Source: Alphaproteobacteria bacterium (GTDB lineage: Bacteria; Pseudomonadota; Alphaproteobacteria; JAREAF01). Taken from it: a stretch of DNA of 64,000 nucleotides. The DNA is taken from positions 40,163-104,162 of the forward strand of contig DASPGI010000066.1 in NCBI GenBank assembly GCA_035620695.1, read 5' to 3'. A program made the position numbers and the translations under genes. The notes beneath the pieces were generated by a model. The model saw nothing but the letters and a program-made list of their open reading frames with translations, did not search any database and was not told where the DNA came from. Shown piece by piece: positions 27,359 to 35,193 of this stretch (position 1 is its first letter; each line of letters opens with the position of its first letter).

Positions 27359-28771
27359 TTAAGAAAGGGGCACCTCGATTTCGCAGCGCAAGCCGTCCTT
27401 GCGCCACTCCATTTCGAGGGTACCTCCCAACTGCTGACAGACGGCCCCTTCAATGATGGTCATGCCGAAGCCCTTTTTTCTCGGCGGCTGGGCCTCAGCG
27501 CAACCGCTTTCCGTCCACCGGAACAGCAGTCGGTCGCCCGGCATCCCCCACCAGCGCAGCTCGATACGGCCGGACGGCTGGTGGATTGCGCCATGCTTGA
27601 CGGCGTTGGTCGACAGCTCGTGCACCACCATGGCGAGCGACTGGGCCAGCTGCGGGGAGACCGAAAGAGAGGGGCCATCGATCGCCACGCGGACATTCTC
27701 GCCTCCCAGATAAGGAGCAAGCTCGTCCTGGACGATACGGCGCAGATCGGCACCTTCCCAGCGCGAGGTCGACAGCAAGGTGTGCGCACGAGACAGGGCC
27801 GAGATGCGGCCGTCGACCGCCTCCTTGAACTCCGGTATTGAATCGGCCTGGGTCAGATGCACCAGCGCCTGGATCACCGCAAGCATGTTCTTCGCCCGGT
27901 GGTCCACCTCGCTGGCAAGCAGGCGCAGCCGTTCCTCCGACGCCTTGCGCTCGGTGATGTCCACCAGCATGTTGACCGCCCCGACCACGGCGCCCGAGCA
28001 ATCGTGCAGGAGTGTCGGATAGGGCGCAAAGGTAACGCGCGTGCCGTCCGGACGCTCCACGACGGCTTCGGCGCCTCTGATCGGGCGGCGCTGGTTGAGC
28101 GTCTGGGCCATGGGGCAGTGATCGTGCGGCATCGGCCTGCCATCGGGATAGAACAGCCGCCACGATCCGCACCAGGTCGCGGTTCCGATCTCAGGTCGAC
28201 ACCCCCAAAGCTCGACGGCGGCTTCGTTGTAGAAGGTGATGGAACCGGCCGCATCCGTGGTGTAGATGGCGGCGGGCAGTCCTTGAAGCAGCTCACGCAG
28301 CCGCTGTTCGCTTTCCTTGACCCTCTCTTCTGCAAGCCTGCGGCGAGTGATGTCCTGAAAGCAGTTCACCGCGCCGGCGAGCTCTCCCGTCTCCGAGAAA
28401 AGCGGCCGGACATTGAGCAGAACCGAGATGCGTGTCCTATCCGGGCGCTCGATCGTGAGCTCTCGATCGACAGCCGGAATTCCGGTCCGCAATACTTCCG
28501 CCATCGGCGTTTCGTCGAGCGAGAGCGGCACGCCGTCCGGCGTGTAGGCGCGCAACGCTCCGCAATAACGCTGCCGAGCCTCGCCGATCTGCGGCGAGCG
28601 GCCCCAAAGCATCGCGGCGCGCTCGTTGTAGCGGATCAGCGCCCCGTCCCGGTCGCAGATGCACAAGCCGATCGGCAGCGCATCGAAGAGGTGTTCGCCC
28701 CAAAGCGGGAGGGACCTTGGCTGGGCCGAGACGAATGGAACGACCTTTTCCGCCGCGGTCGGCTCGCTCAT
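27359..28771 (-). CDS. Cytoplasmic PAS-PAS sensor histidine kinase, HWE/HisKA_2 family
   Basis: 470 aa. Two PAS-like repeats, an H-box HRAKNMLAVIQAL (HisKA_2) and an HWE-type ATPase region (HELSTNAVKHGA ... RWWG ... E). No TM segments. Confidence 0.85.
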   Translation of the reverse strand: MSEPTAAEKVVPFVSAQPRSLPLWGEHLFDALPIGLCICDRDGALIRYNERAAMLWGRSPQIGEARQRYCGALRAYTPDGVPLSLDETPMAEVLRTGIPAVDRELTIERPDRTRISVLLNVRPLFSETGELAGAVNCFQDITRRRLAEERVKESEQRLRELLQGLPAAIYTTDAAGSITFYNEAAVELWGCRPEIGTATWCGSWRLFYPDGRPMPHDHCPMAQTLNQRRPIRGAEAVVERPDGTRVTFAPYPTLLHDCSGAVVGAVNMLVDITERKASEERLRLLASEVDHRAKNMLAVIQALVHLTQADSIPEFKEAVDGRISALSRAHTLLSTSRWEGADLRRIVQDELAPYLGGENVRVAIDGPSLSVSPQLAQSLAMVVHELSTNAVKHGAIHQPSGRIELRWWGMPGDRLLFRWTESGCAEAQPPRKKGFGMTIIEGAVCQQLGGTLEMEWRKDGLRCEIEVPLS

Positions 28772-28888
28772 GCTTCACCTCTCCCAAATTGTCGGCTCAC
28801 GCAAGGGACGAAGCGCGCGGCCGAACCGATGAAAACATCCGAAAATGGCGGCAGTTCTCGGCATCAAGTCGCCGGCCATTCACGGATC

Positions 28889-29692
28889 TTAGAATTGAGC
28901 GCCAAGCGCTATCATGCCGGCCAGAATCAGCGTCCATCCCGTGACGCGGGTCAGCCAGTGCCCCAACGGCACGCTTTTCTCGATCAAGATATAAAGGGCG
29001 AGCCCTCCGATCCAGGCGAAGTTCATGACGCCCCCATAGAAGAGCAGCCCCATCATGACCCAACAGCAACCGAGGCAATAGGCGCCATGCGCGATACCCA
29101 TGCGAAGAGCGCCAAATCGGCCCGAGCGCCAGTGGTGCGAAAGAAACCGAAGCGGGCTTTGGCAGTGGGCGAGGCATGCGCGTTTGATCGGAGTGAGCTG
29201 CCAAGTTCCCGCGCCGATCAGGATAAGCCCGCCCAAGAATGAGCTAGCGCTGGCCATCGCCATGGTCATGAGGCCGCTCTGGTCGAGCGCCCAGTGGAGG
29301 ATTGCCGCGACCAGGCTGAAACTGCCCCAGACCAGCATATAGCCCCAGGCGAAGGACAGCGTCGCCGACGCTCGCCCATCCGTCAAGCGCCGAGCGACGA
29401 GGTCGTAGAGAAGAATAGTCGGGGCAGCGCTCGGCAGCATCATCGCCGCCATCATGATCCACCACATCAGGAAGATCACGACGGCGTAGCCGGGGGACCA
29501 GGGCAAGGGCGCCATCACCATGCTCGGGTCCATTCCATCCATCGAGGGCATGCCCGCCCCGGCGAAGAGATAGACCCAAGCCAACCCCGCCACGACCAAA
29601 AGCGCTACCGTCACGACGCGGCGTTCGCGCTGCAGCACCAGCCGCCATGCTTGGCGAGATCCTCGAATCTGATGGAGAGCGACCTCGCCCAT
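28889..29692 (-). CDS. DUF2182-family predicted metal-binding integral membrane protein
   Basis: Start at MGEVALH (ATG at 29690-29692), which overlaps the stop of the upstream DUF1326 gene by one base (ATGA coupling) with a neighbouring GGA; the listed ORF start is 29746. Polytopic (6 TM), Met/Trp-rich helices. Confidence 0.7.
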   Translation of the reverse strand: MGEVALHQIRGSRQAWRLVLQRERRVVTVALLVVAGLAWVYLFAGAGMPSMDGMDPSMVMAPLPWSPGYAVVIFLMWWIMMAAMMLPSAAPTILLYDLVARRLTDGRASATLSFAWGYMLVWGSFSLVAAILHWALDQSGLMTMAMASASSFLGGLILIGAGTWQLTPIKRACLAHCQSPLRFLSHHWRSGRFGALRMGIAHGAYCLGCCWVMMGLLFYGGVMNFAWIGGLALYILIEKSVPLGHWLTRVTGWTLILAGMIALGAQF

Positions 29693-30327
29693 CAGGCAAT
29701 CACGCCCTTGGGTCCGTAGGCGACATATGTCAGAAAGCCATAGCAATTACGGTGCTGCATACCCAGCTCGGGACCTGCGGACTCGAAACGGCCACTGGCC
29801 ATCTCGGCCTCGCGGAACTCGAATCCCTCCGGCAGCCGGATCTGCGCCCGGTGCGGCGCGCCGGTCACGGGGTTGCGGATTGGCTCCAGGCTCATCTCCA
29901 TCATTCCAGGCACGCGGAAGCCGCCGGTGCGTGATTCGAGATCAGCGCTGAACTCTACGGGAGCCACGATCAGGTCCAGCTCACGGGCGATGGTTGCTCC
30001 ATAGATGTTGAAGGGTGTGGCCGGCTCCTGCTCCTTGCCGGACATGATCTGGATCAGCGCATCGCGCTGCTCGGGCGTGGCGCGCTCGTCGATGAAGCCC
30101 TGCGCGACGCCGCCCCCCTCATGAACCGGCCCCGGCCAGCGGTAGCGCGCACCGATGATGAGCCCGTCGAGCTTCACGGCGCCGAAATGACCTTGGTCGA
30201 TCCGATGCGCCTCCAGGCCTTCGCAGATCGGGTGCGTCGGACGTGCATTGAACTCGCACGGGCAGCCATAGTCGCAATTGCAGGCGGAGATCTTGGGTCC
30301 CTTGATCATCCAGTCCCGATGCGCCAT
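29692..30327 (-). CDS. DUF1326-family protein, the usual partner of DUF2182
   Basis: 211 aa, soluble, with a Cys-rich N-terminus (ISACNCDYGCPCEFNARP). Translationally coupled to the downstream DUF2182 gene. Confidence 0.7.
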   Translation of the reverse strand: MAHRDWMIKGPKISACNCDYGCPCEFNARPTHPICEGLEAHRIDQGHFGAVKLDGLIIGARYRWPGPVHEGGGVAQGFIDERATPEQRDALIQIMSGKEQEPATPFNIYGATIARELDLIVAPVEFSADLESRTGGFRVPGMMEMSLEPIRNPVTGAPHRAQIRLPEGFEFREAEMASGRFESAGPELGMQHRNCYGFLTYVAYGPKGVIA

Positions 30328-30413
30328 CTGCGCCTCCTCGACGATTCCAGTTTAGTGGAAGAAAAACGATGATGCCCGCCGGATCAAGCCGGTTAAGGGT
30401 GCATAGGGAGTAG

Positions 30414-31352
30414 TCACGGTCGTGGAGCGAAACCCGCGGGGTCGGTGTTTGCTCCGCACAGCACAACGCCGACGCGCTCGCCCGCTTCGATGGGATAGGC
30501 ACCGCAGAGCAACGCCGCCAGCGCCGCCGCGCCGCCGGGCTCGACGAGGATGCGCAGCTCGCGCCACAGCGCCCGCTGCGCCGCCTGGATCGCATCATCT
30601 TCGACCAGCAGCACGCGCAGGGCCTGAGCTTGCGCGATCTCGCAAGCAAGACCGCCCGCCTCGCGCGCGCCGAGGGAATCGGCAGCGATGCCCGATACGG
30701 CCACCGGAACGGGCCGCCCCGCCGCCAGTGCGTCATGCAAGGTCGGCGCAAGGTTCGGCTCGACACCAATGACGCGGGTGCCGCTACCCTGATAGGCCAG
30801 TGCCATTCCGGCGATGAGCCCTCCACCGCCGACCGCGACCAGAACGCTATCGAGGTCCGGCGCCTGGCGCCGCAATTCGAGCCCCACGGTGCCTTGACCC
30901 AGAACAACCTCGGGCTGGTCGTACGCGTGAACGACCAGCGCGCCGCTTGTCTCTGCCCGAATCGCGCTGGCCGCAAGGGCCTCGGCATAGGTCGCGCCGG
31001 TCACCGCCACATCGGCGCCGGTGTCGCGGATGGCCCGAAGCTTGGCCGGCGCGGCGATGGTCGGAACGAAGATTGTCGCCTTGACCCCGAGCCGGCGCGC
31101 CGCGTGGGCGACGGCAATTCCGTGATTTCCGCCCGAAGCCGCGATCACGCCCGACGATGGAATCTCATGAGACAGCAGGCGGTTGAACGCCCCGCGAGGC
31201 TTGAAGGAGCCGGTGACTTGCAGGAATTCGAGCTTGAGCGTAAGGCGACCGTTGAGCCCAAACGCCCCCTTCTCCAGCTCCAGGACGGGCGTGGTGCGGA
31301 TGTGCGGCGCGATTCGCTCCAAAGCGTCGGCGATGCCGTTCCTGTCGATCAT
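30414..31352 (-). CDS. PLP-dependent threonine/serine dehydratase-like enzyme
   Basis: Start at MIDRNGIADALERIAPHIRTTPV (ATG at 31352) rather than the listed 31502. Lys motif SFKPRG and a glycine-rich PLP loop ASGGNHG. Confidence 0.8.
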   Translation of the reverse strand: MIDRNGIADALERIAPHIRTTPVLELEKGAFGLNGRLTLKLEFLQVTGSFKPRGAFNRLLSHEIPSSGVIAASGGNHGIAVAHAARRLGVKATIFVPTIAAPAKLRAIRDTGADVAVTGATYAEALAASAIRAETSGALVVHAYDQPEVVLGQGTVGLELRRQAPDLDSVLVAVGGGGLIAGMALAYQGSGTRVIGVEPNLAPTLHDALAAGRPVPVAVSGIAADSLGAREAGGLACEIAQAQALRVLLVEDDAIQAAQRALWRELRILVEPGGAAALAALLCGAYPIEAGERVGVVLCGANTDPAGFAPRP

Positions 31353-31383
31353 CTCCGCACCATGACGACGACGTGCTGTCGCT

Positions 31384-32025
31384 TCAATGGGGATGGGGCG
31401 TGGAGCCCGAGAGGAGACCCAGCCGCTGGAAATGGCCGCGCAACTCCTCTGCTCCAATGAACCGGATCGCTTGAAAGCCGAGCCCGAGAGCCGCCGCGAC
31501 ATTCGCCTGCGAATCGTCTACGAAGATCGTGCGCTCGGGTATCAATCCCGTCCTCTCGATCAGCAACCCGAAGATTCGCGGGTCGGGCTTGATCACCCCC
31601 TCCTCGCCAGAGATCAGGATGTGCCGGAACCGGTTCAGGAACGCAAAACGCCTGCGTCCGATCGGGAATGTCTCGGCCGACCAGTTGGTCAACGCATAGA
31701 GCGGCATTCCGCTTGAATGCAGCTCCTCCAGAAGAGCGACCGTGCCTGAGATCTCTCCGCCAAGCATTTCCTCCCAACGCTCCCGCCAAGCGCGAATGAA
31801 CGGCTCCTGTTCAGGGTGGAGAAGCATAAGTTCGGCCAAGCCCTCCTCGAAGGAGCGGCCGGCATCGAGGCGCCGAATCCAATCCGGGGAGCACACCTCC
31901 CTCAGGAATCTCTCCATCGCCTCCTCCTCGTCGAACAGCTTGCGATAGAGATGGCGCGGATTCCAGTCGATGAGCACCCCGCCGAGATCGAAGACCACCG
32001 CTCCGATCGCAATCCGATCCTCCAT
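31384..32025 (-). CDS. HAD-superfamily hydrolase (subfamily IA-like phosphatase)
   Basis: Start at MEDRIAIGAVVFDLGGVLIDW (DxG motif I) rather than the listed 32295; about 213 aa. Motif IV-like FVDDS. Confidence 0.8.
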   Translation of the reverse strand: MEDRIAIGAVVFDLGGVLIDWNPRHLYRKLFDEEEAMERFLREVCSPDWIRRLDAGRSFEEGLAELMLLHPEQEPFIRAWRERWEEMLGGEISGTVALLEELHSSGMPLYALTNWSAETFPIGRRRFAFLNRFRHILISGEEGVIKPDPRIFGLLIERTGLIPERTIFVDDSQANVAAALGLGFQAIRFIGAEELRGHFQRLGLLSGSTPHPH

Positions 32026-32026
32026 A

Positions 32027-32944
32027 TCAACCAGCCTCCAGAGTCGGTGCGAGTCGCGGCAGAGCCTCGTGGATCTCCCGCTCGGTCGGCAGGCTGCTCT
32101 GCGCGCCCTGAGTGAGACAGGCGAGCCCGCCGGCCACACTGGCCCATCGCAAAGCCTCGCCCGGATCAAGCCCGCGATCGAGCGCGGCGGCGAAGACTCC
32201 GACCGCGGCATCGCCGGCGCCGGTGGTGTCCGCCGGCGTGATTGGGAGGGCCGGGACGCGCCACCGCGCCTCGCCCTTACAGGCAGCGATGCCACGAGCG
32301 CCCAATGTGATCACCACGCCAATATTGAACGCGCTGGCGATCGTCTTTGCATCGCCTTCGGAGCTGAGCCCCTGCGCCTTGGCGAGATCGACCGCCTCGC
32401 CTTCGTTGAGGATGAGCCAATCGAGCTTGCGCAAGAGATCGGAGGGCACAGGGCCGGCAGGCGCGAGGTTGAGCAGGATCGTCACACCCCGGGTGGCGGC
32501 GCGCCGGGCCAGGCTCCAAATTTCCTCGGCCGTGACCTCGCGCTGAAGCATCAGGATCGTACCCTGCTGCAGCAGCGCATCGGGTACGGCACGCTGGGTC
32601 AGCTTCGCGTTCGCGCCGAGTGCCACGGCGATCTGGTTCTCGCCTTTGGGATCGACGCAAATCAGCGCGCAGCCGGTCGGCGCCGATGCATCTCGGACCA
32701 GGTGATCGAGACCGACGCCCGCTGCGACGAGTTCGGCCAGGGCTGGCTCGGCAAAGGCATCACGGCCGACACAGCCGACGAAATGCGCTTCAGCACCAGC
32801 GCGACGCGCGGCCAACGCTTGATTGGCGCCTTTGCCACCGGGAAGCGTGCGATAGCCGGGCCCAAGCACGGTCTCGCCCGGACGCGGCAGACGCTCTACG
32901 GAGGCGATCAGGTCCAGATTGACGGCGCCAAACGAGATGATCAT
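32027..32944 (-). CDS. PfkB-family carbohydrate kinase (ribokinase-like)
   Basis: Start at MIISFGAVNLDL (ATG at 32944) rather than the listed 33079. GG dipeptide region PGGKGANQA and the ATP-binding signature DTTGAGDA. Its stop lies next to the HAD gene start. Confidence 0.85.
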   Translation of the reverse strand: MIISFGAVNLDLIASVERLPRPGETVLGPGYRTLPGGKGANQALAARRAGAEAHFVGCVGRDAFAEPALAELVAAGVGLDHLVRDASAPTGCALICVDPKGENQIAVALGANAKLTQRAVPDALLQQGTILMLQREVTAEEIWSLARRAATRGVTILLNLAPAGPVPSDLLRKLDWLILNEGEAVDLAKAQGLSSEGDAKTIASAFNIGVVITLGARGIAACKGEARWRVPALPITPADTTGAGDAAVGVFAAALDRGLDPGEALRWASVAGGLACLTQGAQSSLPTEREIHEALPRLAPTLEAG

Positions 32945-35193
32945 CGAACGAGCTCGAGTTTCACGGAGGCGCTGCGTTTTGGAACCAAATAACGAAGCCG
33001 GTTCCCTTCCCGCCGACCCGCCAGCACGCTGCCGTCGAGGCGCGCCTTCAGGCCGTCTCCTGCGGGAACGGCAATCCACGCGGCGGGGCCGGGCGGCAGC
33101 TCGGCTTTCACGGCGTCGGCATCGAAGGAAAGCCCGGTCAAGCGCTCAACGGATGTGATCAGGCGCGGCTGTCCATCGATGCTGAGCGTCATCGCTTCCG
33201 TTTCCGTCGACGATTCCAATCCGCCCCAGGGCGAGCAGACCGGACCCGATCGTTCGCCGTTCTTGCCGCGCGCGACAGACCAACCCCACCAAGGCGTCAC
33301 GTCGATGCGCTCGCCGAGGGCGATGAACGGCATCAGCGCGCCCCAGCCATAGAAGGAATCCGTGTCCGGCTGGTCAAAGGCCTCTCCGGTCGTGGCGGAA
33401 TAGTTTTCCGGGCATTTGCGGTCGGCCCAGGCGCGCCGGAACAGGCGCCAGCCATTCTCGGCGAGCAGGCTCGCCTCCGCCATGAAGCCGGCCCGCCGCA
33501 AGCCCGCCCAGACCAGAAAGTTCAGCGGCGGCCAGATCCGGCCCCGCCAATAGACATTGTCGGCGAAAGCCGGATCGTCGCGAGTGACCGAGGGCAAGAG
33601 CCACTCGCCGCCGAATTTCCGGGGATCGCCGAGGAGCCGTACCATGGCGCTCGCCTGCTCGGGGCGCGCCGCTCCTGCCAGAAGCGGAAAGAAACTGGTC
33701 GGCGCCAGGGAGCAAACAAAGCGTCCCGACCAGAGGCGATTGGCAAAGACCTGCCGCTCGCCATCCCAGAGCCGCTCGGCGATACGTGCCTTCAAAGCCT
33801 CCGCGCTTTCGGCATGGCGGCGCGCTGCTTGCTTTTTCCCCAGCACCTCCGCGATCAGCGCCAGCATTTCCGCGTCCAACGCGATCAGGCTGTTGAGGCC
33901 GACATCGGCGGCATTCAGCGTCCGTGTTTTCAGATCGAATTCGGCCTCGTCATGGACCGGGGAATTGTCCATAAAGGATTCGTCCTTGGCCGCGAGCTTC
34001 GTGCCGATATAGAGCCCAGCGCCGATATCCGAGCTGCCATATTCGTAAAGCCCGTCGCCATTGCCGTCGCGCCGCGCCAGCCACCAGCGGTGATTGGCAT
34101 CCAAAACGGGCCAGGCGCGGCGCAACAGCTCCCGCGAACCGAGACGCGTATGAAGAAGCCAGACGATGAAGCTTCCGATGGGGGGCTGCGAACGGTCGAG
34201 CCACGCGTCTCGACCGGTGATGAGGCAGGCAAGATTGCCCTCGGGCGTGGCGTTGCCCAGCGCAGCCTCGAGATTTTCGCGCGCGAGGTCGGGATCGATC
34301 GCGCTCGCCATCAGCGCATGGAAAAACAGATCGTCGAGCCACACACCCCAGCCACCGAATTTCTGCATGCCCCAGTTCCGGCTGAGCGTCGTGTAGGGGC
34401 GATGATTCACCGGGTCCCAAACCGTGTTCCAGGTAATCACATCACGCACGGCGGCCAGCGGGTCGGCGCTCTGGTCTCGCGATCCACCACCGCTCCAACC
34501 CTCTCCACTCGCGGGGGATGACGGCTGAAGCCGCGAAAGCGTCTCTCCGACACGCCGTACCGCCGTGCCCGGATCCGCCGCGACGGTGGCGACGAAGGTC
34601 AAACCCGGCATCTCTTCCAGATTGTAGCGCAACGCCAGAAGCGTGCCGGAGGTGCTCCGCGAATCGAGATACCAGTAGCCCTTGCTCTGCATCTCCTCGC
34701 GCAATGCCGCAAGCGAGGAATGGGCCGTCACCAGAAGCGGGCGGCGGCTGGCCCCGACCGCAACCTTCCATCTCCGATGAACCGCCTGAGCAAACCCTGT
34801 CCGCGGGTCGAACCGCCAGCGCGCCGATGCGCCAGCGCGCTCGGGCGCCATCAGCCGCAGTGCGAGCACGACCCAGAAGCGCAGGCCCCATTCGCCGTGC
34901 TTGAGCACGCGATAACGGCCGATCAATGTCGTCGGATCCGGAGAGGTGTAGCGAAGCTCGAGCTCGGTTCCGGCATGCGCGAGCCGGAGCCAAACGCCAT
35001 CGGCGGTGACCCGGCGTTGACCCAAGCTGAGACCCGGCGCGCCGGCGGGATAGTCGGTGAAGTCGTTGCGGCTGGCTGCATAGGTGCAGGGACGCAGCTC
35101 CAGGCCCAGCGGCAGATACCGCATCGCCGCGGGATGATCGGAGTCCCAACTATTCCAAGCGCGCTCGGCCGGGACGATATCAGTCCCGATCAT
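32941..35193 (-). CDS. Six-hairpin glycoside hydrolase of the GH63 / GDE_C (amylo-alpha-1,6-glucosidase-like) superfamily
   Basis: 750 aa. A large soluble enzyme whose C-terminal half resembles (alpha/alpha)6-barrel glycosidases such as YgjK and mannosyl/glucosylglycerate hydrolases. Its start overlaps the isochorismatase-family gene stop (ATGA). Confidence 0.65.
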   Translation of the reverse strand: MIGTDIVPAERAWNSWDSDHPAAMRYLPLGLELRPCTYAASRNDFTDYPAGAPGLSLGQRRVTADGVWLRLAHAGTELELRYTSPDPTTLIGRYRVLKHGEWGLRFWVVLALRLMAPERAGASARWRFDPRTGFAQAVHRRWKVAVGASRRPLLVTAHSSLAALREEMQSKGYWYLDSRSTSGTLLALRYNLEEMPGLTFVATVAADPGTAVRRVGETLSRLQPSSPASGEGWSGGGSRDQSADPLAAVRDVITWNTVWDPVNHRPYTTLSRNWGMQKFGGWGVWLDDLFFHALMASAIDPDLARENLEAALGNATPEGNLACLITGRDAWLDRSQPPIGSFIVWLLHTRLGSRELLRRAWPVLDANHRWWLARRDGNGDGLYEYGSSDIGAGLYIGTKLAAKDESFMDNSPVHDEAEFDLKTRTLNAADVGLNSLIALDAEMLALIAEVLGKKQAARRHAESAEALKARIAERLWDGERQVFANRLWSGRFVCSLAPTSFFPLLAGAARPEQASAMVRLLGDPRKFGGEWLLPSVTRDDPAFADNVYWRGRIWPPLNFLVWAGLRRAGFMAEASLLAENGWRLFRRAWADRKCPENYSATTGEAFDQPDTDSFYGWGALMPFIALGERIDVTPWWGWSVARGKNGERSGPVCSPWGGLESSTETEAMTLSIDGQPRLITSVERLTGLSFDADAVKAELPPGPAAWIAVPAGDGLKARLDGSVLAGRREGNRLRYLVPKRSASVKLELVR

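Follow-up and report, generated by a model that had tools for sequence, protein, structure and literature searches.

The two genes described here lie next to each other in a stretch of 64,000 nucleotides (the window) from an alphaproteobacterial metagenome-assembled genome (MAG; GCA_035620695.1, contig DASPGI010000066.1, positions 40,163 to 104,162 of the forward strand). Both are read on the minus strand, and the window carries a single copy of each. The first encodes a protein of 211 amino acids of the DUF1326 family, which is similar to DmdF, and the second a membrane protein of 267 amino acids of the PpoB2 family (formerly DUF2182), which is similar to DmdE (Table 1). The Pfam profile PF07040 matched the DUF1326 protein with an E-value of 2.5e-49 and 168.3 bits (cut-off 25) over profile positions 2-169 of 177. 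For the membrane protein, the profile PF09948 gave an E-value of 2.7e-63 and 213.7 bits (cut-off 28.7) over profile positions 1-187 of 188. The two family assignments, which had been proposed in an earlier note on this DNA, were therefore upheld by scores far above the cut-offs. The current Pfam name of PF09948 is "PpoB2, copper chaperone", and the family equals COG5486. A model for either protein was absent from NCBIfam.

In a mechanical list of open reading frames (ORFs), the DUF2182 frame reached an upstream TTG at 29746 (28889-29746, 285 amino acids). The ATG at 29692 was taken as the start codon instead, because of the N-termini of the homologues and because of a 100%-identical database protein of 267 amino acids (P0121). 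The stop codon of DUF1326 and the start codon of DUF2182 overlap in the sequence TGATG, as had been noticed before. This exact overlap was found only in the window and in the related loci L002 and L069 (3 of about 58 junctions) and is not a conserved trait; what persists is the short spacing, the distance from stop to start being mostly +1 to +15 nt in related loci. Both genes were considered real and not chance ORFs, since they have thousands of homologues and their guanine-plus-cytosine content at third codon positions (GC3, 0.78-0.79) is equal to that of the neighbouring genes. Their overall GC content likewise matches the rest of the window, and neither GC nor GC3 gave a compositional sign of recent horizontal acquisition in the source genome.

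The linkage of the two genes was surveyed in a collection holding one genome per species, which was scanned with an alignment of DUF1326 homologues as the query and contained relatives in at least 527 genomes of several phyla. The best 80 of these loci were analyzed (56-85% identity), with 6 kb of flanking sequence requested on each side. They came from Alpha-, Beta- and Gammaproteobacteria, Nitrospinota, Chloroflexota, Acidobacteriota, one cyanobacterium and Rhodothermia, and the partner genes were called with hidden Markov models, built from our own alignments, against the six-frame ORFs. A DUF2182 gene was present within the fetched stretch in 64 of the 80 loci, adjoining DUF1326 or its tandem paralogue, and lay downstream on the same strand in 62. 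It followed DUF1326 directly in 43 loci, including L049, where it is split by a frameshift, and came after two DUF1326 genes (order DUF1326a, DUF1326b, DUF2182) in 17. Two more loci were placed in a looser class, L012 with a frameshift-split DUF2182 directly after DUF1326 and L020 with an intervening ORF of 137 amino acids. The two genes were divergent in L010, and L037 was the sole locus among the 80 with DUF2182 first. Three loci ended early at the end of a contig. Look-ups from the other side, starting from DUF2182 homologues of 47-53% identity, found DUF1326 immediately upstream in 4 of 4, in unrelated contexts. The two proteins also diverged together (r=0.59), and 0 of 2000 permutations reached a correlation as high. 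Across phyla, the two genes have been passed on as a unit while the genes around them are unrelated, and the conserved pairing described in the earlier note was confirmed from both sides.

The DUF1326 protein is soluble and cytoplasmic, and its AlphaFold2 (AF2) model, with a predicted local distance difference test score (pLDDT) of 92.3, predicts a beta-cone fold like that of acetoacetate decarboxylase (ADC). The sole loop of low confidence (residues 21-30, pLDDT 63) belongs to the cysteine site, which AF2 could not position in the absence of a ligand. A cysteine cluster, CNCDYGCPCE, had been pointed out near the N-terminus and occupies residues 16-25. The whole signature extends to C35, and the five cysteines C16, C18, C22, C24 and C35 were invariant in 35 close homologues. 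In a wider set of 70 representatives (34-55% identity), each of them was conserved in 90-96% and H69 in 84%. Outside the cluster, the invariant polar residues were E25, E36, H69, Q87, N152, H159 and Y196. The predicted beta-cone is shared with the members of the ADC-like superfamily (ADC, MppR, Sbi00515 and Swit_4259); identity to DUF1326, however, is only 6-12%, with no match at the profile level, and these proteins have about 250 residues compared with the 211 of DUF1326. We know of no ADC-like enzyme that carries the N-terminal five-cysteine cluster. No other Pfam family was matched by DUF1326 at E<=5 and no PDB entry at E<=10, and searches by sequence for remote families or solved structures gave no relatives for either protein of the pair.

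The membrane protein is rich in methionine and tryptophan, as had been claimed: of its 267 residues, 20 are Met and 14 are Trp. Hydropathy, charge according to the positive-inside rule and the AF2 model (pLDDT 82.5, nine helices) placed it in the inner membrane with a signal anchor, whose N-terminus faces the cytoplasm, followed by six transmembrane (TM) helices. The six TM helices described earlier correspond to the Pfam domain, but the additional N-terminal anchor brings the number to seven in all. By the positive-inside rule, a methionine-rich loop lies outside and a CxxxC pair inside. The first periplasmic loop was examined in 97 homologues, where it ranged from 11 to 83 residues and was composed of 21.7% Met, 0% Cys and 0.7% His; MxM or MxxM motifs occurred in 84 of the 97 loops, including repeats such as DMPGMDQG. 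The cytoplasmic segment of residues 166-193 contains five Lys or Arg and the histidines H186/H187, and its short helices lie outside the bilayer. Among the residues that do not vary in any of the 97 homologues are M76, W77, M80, M81, M84, M85, P87, Q165 and K170, and also C173, C177, P180, H202, C206, C209, C210, M214 and K239. These invariant Cys, Met and His residues, together with those of DUF1326, fit the membrane-associated metal- or redox-handling module that had been suggested for the pair. Among structural relatives, only a weak, generic similarity to half of a major facilitator superfamily protein was detected.

Table 1. Genes and sequence features of the DUF1326-DUF2182 locus (nucleotide positions refer to the window, residue numbers to the protein concerned)
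Feature	Position in window	Strand	Description
Shine-Dalgarno sequence GAGGAGG	30333..30339	minus	5 nt 5' of the DUF1326 ATG, read from the sequence
DUF1326 gene	30327..29692	minus	211 amino acids, DmdF-like
Cysteine signature C16-x-C18-x3-C22-x-C24 ... C35 (CNCDYGCPCEFNARPTHPIC)	30223..30282	minus	proposed thiolate metal site
TGATG junction	29690..29694	minus	DUF1326 stop TGA and DUF2182 start ATG with one common A
PpoB2/DUF2182 gene	29692..28889	minus	267 amino acids, DmdE-like; ATG 29692..29690, TAA 28891..28889
Cytoplasmic N-terminus			residues 1-25, 6 K/R
TM1, signal anchor			residues 26-44, outside the Pfam domain
Periplasmic Met-rich loop (GAGMPSMDGMDPSMVMAPLPWS)	29495..29560	minus	residues 45-66, between TM1 and TM2; 5 Met, no K/R
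TM2 methionine ladder MWWIMMAAMM	29438..29467	minus	M76/M80/M84 at i, i+4, i+8 on one helix face; also M81 and M85
Second periplasmic loop			between TM3 and TM4; short, Met-containing
C173-x3-C177 (CLAHC)	29162..29176	minus	K/R-rich cytoplasmic segment between TM4 and TM5
TM5 His/Cys3 site H202, C206, C209, C210 (HGAYCLGCC)	29063..29089	minus	8-16 residues into TM5 from the cytoplasmic side
TM6 and TM7			last helices of the membrane protein
Terminator-like hairpin	28826..28892	minus	begins at the DUF2182 stop codon, followed by GUUUUC
PAS-PAS-HWE kinase gene	28771..27359	minus	470 amino acids

The pair had been regarded as one of unknown function, with the membrane protein annotated only as a predicted metal-binding protein. 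This view is outdated and partly superseded by publications on PpoB2 (PMC2855505) and on DmdE/DmdF (PMC12992908). PpoB2 of Marinomonas mediterranea was the first COG5486 protein with an assigned role and is reported to pass copper specifically to the tyrosinase PpoB1 encoded in the same operon (PMC2855505). The window pair has in common with PpoB2-PpoB1 a polytopic PF09948/COG5486 protein with metal-binding motifs and a two-gene operon with a soluble partner that is proposed to be served. The partner in the window, however, is DUF1326 and not a tyrosinase, and copper transfer in the clade of the window is only predicted. In Ruegeria lacuscaerulensis ITI-1157, DUF2182 corresponds to DmdE and DUF1326 to DmdF, which were described as "always adjacent" (EMBO J 2026, PMC12992908). 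Mutants in dmdE and dmdF did not grow on dimethylsulfoniopropionate (DMSP), and both genes were needed for its demethylation. Purified DmdF consumed H2O2 and released O2, and reactive oxygen species (ROS) increased in the dmdF mutant. DmdE was not a DMSP transporter, and its role was left open. "dmdEF-like" pairs elsewhere in bacteria were reported as phylogenetically distinct and located away from DMSP genes (PMC12992908).

The locus of the window belongs to this known, poorly understood DUF1326/DUF2182 cassette, as a new member from a separate clade in which the gene order is reversed and the context differs. It was likened to the Ruegeria proteins, and set apart from them, by family, gene order and published description. 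The two systems share both Pfam families side by side, a soluble cytoplasmic partner and an N-terminal signal-like helix in the membrane partner. In contrast, dmdE (DUF2182) is listed first in Ruegeria, whereas DUF1326 comes first in the window and in 62 of the 80 loci. Neither dmdR (GntR) nor dmdA, acuI or DinB was found near the window pair, among 146 flanking genes of the clade or in the surveyed Rhodobacterales loci. Full-text searches found no literature connecting the copper chaperone PpoB2 with the oxidative-stress pair DmdEF.

A further comparison is offered by the Ctr1/COPT copper channels, which combine Mets motifs on the extracytoplasmic side with an essential MxxxM inside a TM helix and with a Cys motif in the cytosol that is proposed to pass Cu(I) to acceptors there, such as chaperones (PMC4039008). 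The membrane protein of the window shows the same three-part logic. The likeness is a functional analogy only: the proteins are non-homologous, Ctr1 has three TM helices per subunit of a trimer versus the 1+6 helices described here, no Ctr Pfam family was matched at E<=5, and the additional invariant His/Cys3 residues within the membrane belong to the window protein. Met-rich domains are established recruiters of Cu+ (PMC11494321).

A relay of Cu(I) from the periplasm to a cytoplasmic DUF1326 client, formed by a self-contained two-gene operon of the DmdF/DmdE type to which the kinase gene downstream does not belong, is the reading that we favour, tentatively and with somewhat less than even confidence. 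It was preferred because of the Ctr1-like layout, the recruitment of Cu+ by Met-rich domains and the delivery of copper by PpoB2 to its operon partner. The membrane protein would act as a small conduit for a soft metal, most likely Cu(I), and as an insertase. Cu(I) would be taken up by the periplasmic Met-rich loop and travel along the methionine ladder of TM2 to the intramembrane His/Cys3 site, would pass next to the cytoplasmic CxxxC pair, and might finally be received, presumably by direct contact of the two proteins, at the CxCx3CxC...C site of the co-translated DUF1326. The latter would be a dedicated client, as the tyrosinase PpoB1 is for PpoB2. Once metallated, it could be a redox protein, consistent with the consumption of H2O2 by DmdF, a reactivity that would then depend on the bound metal, or a cytosolic Cu(I)-thiolate buffer. 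The family membership, the coupling of the two genes, the topology by the positive-inside rule and the conserved residues are shown, whereas we infer the metal, the direction of its transfer, this contact and the activity of the metallated protein. A relay of this kind would explain why the dmdE and dmdF mutants have the same phenotype.

Several observations weigh against the Cu(I) relay. Sites made of Cys, Met and His also bind Zn, Cd, Hg and Ag, or serve in redox relays, and import cannot be told from export by reading the sequence. Among the 80 loci, 13 had no DUF2182 despite at least 1.5 kb of downstream sequence, so that a partner gene alongside is not strictly required by the putative client. 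The survey of gene fusions proposed earlier gave no natural DUF1326-DUF2182 fusion, since the 240 homologues listed were all single-domain proteins and none occurred in the 80 loci; a direct contact of the two proteins thus gains no support from fusions. Two apparent double matches were set aside, as P0379 continues into what appears to be an out-of-frame, Arg-rich read-through; P0312 was not inspected. Scans of the flanking genes found no copper-homeostasis gene, tyrosinase or copper-responsive regulator recurring beside the pair. Likewise, no common upstream operator or promoter emerged, as k-mer enrichment over 77 upstream regions gave only GC-rich composition. Finally, the DmdEF paper mentions no cofactor, copper, haem, cysteines or PpoB2 (PMC12992908).

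The published activity of DmdF could also point to a defence against peroxide or thiol stress, as was proposed for DmdEF. DUF1326 would then be a Cys- or metal-based peroxidase, and the membrane protein, as a relay of thiols or electrons, would re-reduce it or else protect or repair targets in the periplasm, without any delivery of metal. The H2O2 consumption, the O2 release and the raised ROS in the dmdF mutant agree with such a function, as do the invariant Cys pairs of both proteins (CxC, CxxxC, CC) and a glutaredoxin gene located just upstream in 6-7 loci of one clade. Nevertheless, the release of O2 was measured with 10 mg/ml DmdF in 1.76 M H2O2 (PMC12992908), and DmdF may thus have little specific activity, or an adventitious one. 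Moreover, DUF1326 is ADC-like and resembles no known fold of a peroxidase, peroxiredoxin or catalase, the membrane protein matched neither a fold nor a Pfam family of the DsbD/CcdA type, and DinB and other stress genes were missing from the flanks of the clade. MxxM repeats in a loop that is 22% Met and free of Cys are a hallmark of Cu(I) binding and not of a redox relay, and we consider the defence function rather unlikely. Detoxification of soft metals appears quite improbable, even though the ligand set would be the same as for the relay of Cu(I). On this view the Cys cluster of DUF1326 would sequester Cu(I), Ag(I), Hg(II) or Cd(II) in the cytosol for export through the membrane protein, or a toxic metal would be imported and processed in the cytosol, as MerT does for MerA; by analogy, the Cys-pair relay of MerT has a similar layout. 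One pair was found in an island of insertion sequences with an integrase gene, and another beside an operon for efflux of the resistance-nodulation-division (RND) type. However, an energy-coupling domain was absent, neither MerR, CueR or ArsR regulators nor resistance genes recurred in the flanks, the pair lies in unremarkable chromosomal surroundings and has native GC content, and PpoB2, the only characterised member of the family, supplies copper to an enzyme instead of removing it. The invariant polar residues of DUF1326 beyond the Cys cluster leave room for an enzyme with the ADC/AttH fold (a lyase, decarboxylase or hydratase) and a structural Zn(Cys)4, whose substrate or product would be moved by the membrane protein. 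This option is very unlikely in our opinion, given the distance to ADC-type enzymes noted above and the lack of Pfam or PDB sequence matches; furthermore, DmdE does not transport DMSP (PMC12992908), no genes of a metabolic pathway recurred beside the pair, and what is invariant in the membrane protein is a set of metal ligands and not of typical substrate-binding residues.

The gene downstream had been described as a PAS-PAS-HWE kinase on the same strand after a gap of about 117 bp. The gap is exactly 117 bp, and the protein contains two PAS domains (PAS_4/PAS_9), HWE_HK and HATPase_c; it is soluble, with a maximum Kyte-Doolittle value of 1.34 and no hydrophobic segment. This position would suit a pair that reads a metal or redox signal for the kinase, and unrelated sensors adjoin the pair in two further lineages. 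The implied link did not hold, however. When eight neighbours of the window pair, with the kinase as a candidate component of the module, were compared by tblastn with the 80 related loci, matches were obtained only in L002, the closest relative (85% identical), so that the kinase gene neighbours the pair in only 1 of 80 other genomes. It has its own Shine-Dalgarno sequence (GAGG) and is preceded by a stable, terminator-like hairpin after the DUF2182 stop, with a predicted RNA fold of -26.6 kcal/mol (z = -3.24; 1 of 200 shuffled sequences folded as well). The hairpin is partly conserved in L002, and a simple scan for terminator patterns did not call it. Because the kinase gene recurs only in L002 and stands behind this hairpin, it was considered a separate transcription unit outside the module. 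The types of sensor, furthermore, vary by lineage, and a role of the pair as a sensor input seems extremely improbable. The sensor proteins found beside the pair were the PAS-PAS-HWE kinase of the window (27359-28771), a MASE3-HisKA-hemerythrin kinase (L087:3017-4942) and a GAF-SpoIIE-HATPase_c_2 protein, encoded downstream of the pair in L057, L060, L061, L070 and L075. Since no sensor type is conserved across lineages, their adjacency may be a coincidence.

The preferred Cu(I) relay can be extended to the whole PF09948 family, which would then be a bacterial analogue of Ctr1, that is, a small, unenergised channel and insertase importing Cu(I) for dedicated cytoplasmic clients encoded alongside, with DUF1326 as the main client and a new class of Cu(I)-thiolate protein. 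We regard this generalisation as doubtful, although with a real chance of being right. If it were true, DUF1326, with its ADC-like beta-cone, would either detoxify H2O2 as a non-haem enzyme or buffer copper, DmdE would be essential for DMSP demethylation since it metallates DmdF, and a route for copper into the bacterial cytoplasm, still poorly defined, would be at hand. What is new here is the connection between PpoB2 and DmdEF and a testable relay model at the level of residues. A membrane protein that metallates its soluble partner would be one model both for the delivery of copper to cytoplasmic targets in bacteria and for the part played by DmdE in the demethylation of marine DMSP. As the cassette is widespread, with relatives in several phyla, thousands of gene pairs now called "hypothetical" would gain an annotation from a correct assignment. 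For the window itself the gain is small, namely a further copy of the cassette that has no connection to the adjacent kinase.

The surroundings of the pair were analyzed in the same 80 loci. Clustering of about 800 flanking ORFs gave no recurrent third gene, with no cluster present in more than 10 loci, and a scan of the 146 immediately flanking genes found no Pfam family in more than 7. The clusters that did recur (ribosomal protein S4, glutaredoxin, isocitrate dehydrogenase, TetR and GAF-SpoIIE) reflected synteny within single clades. The 64-kb window contained neither a tyrosinase nor a multicopper oxidase nor any other classical copper protein, and motifs of copper proteins were absent from its credible ORFs. 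A scan with sigma-70 and terminator patterns returned nothing useful, and no Rfam riboswitch or leader was found at the locus.

A stand-alone DUF1326 gene was observed in a Methylococcales MAG (L068:2317-7503), between COX3-COX3-COX4_pro and SURF1 in a haem-copper oxidase cluster. In addition, one Rhodospirillales clade (L057, L060, L061, L070, L075) has genes for CtaG/Cox11 and COX3 at a distance of about 5 kb on the upstream side of the pair. These neighbourhoods give a weak hint, limited to particular clades, of a link to the biogenesis of cuproenzymes. In Nitrobacteraceae bacterium AZCC 2161 (L082:1-12774), transposase genes (Transposase_mut, DDE_Tnp_1) are located on both sides of the pair and a gene for a phage-type integrase upstream, an indication that the cassette is capable of horizontal movement.

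In 25 of the 80 loci, though not in the window, there is a second DUF1326 paralogue that shares 38-53% identity with the first. It forms tandem triplets with the pair in L009, L013, L014, L031, L033, L036, L040, L045, L047, L050, L053-L055, L059, L074 and others, and lies upstream in L003-L005, L007, L008, L019, L078 and others. The paralogue "b" keeps the five cysteines and H69, whereas E25 is invariably replaced by Gln and K12 by Glu in 21 of 22. This suggests a heteromer, or a division of labour, of the two paralogues.

Upstream of DUF1326, after a gap of 86 bp, lies a gene for a pyridoxal phosphate (PLP)-dependent Ser/Thr dehydratase. It is part of a run of metabolic genes on the same strand (30414-35193, minus), which comprises an MGH1-like glycoside hydrolase or trehalase, a PfkB sugar kinase, a HAD hydrolase and the dehydratase, and which is syntenic with L002. 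The run looks like an unrelated block for the use of sugars or compatible solutes. Between the dehydratase stop and the DUF1326 start, a block of about 45 nt (30368-30413, minus; CTACTCCCTATGCA..CTTAACCG..GATCCG.CGGGCATCATC) is near-identical in L002 while the remaining intergenic DNA of the two sequences compared diverges, and it may act as an operator, as a promoter or as the terminator that ends the gene upstream.

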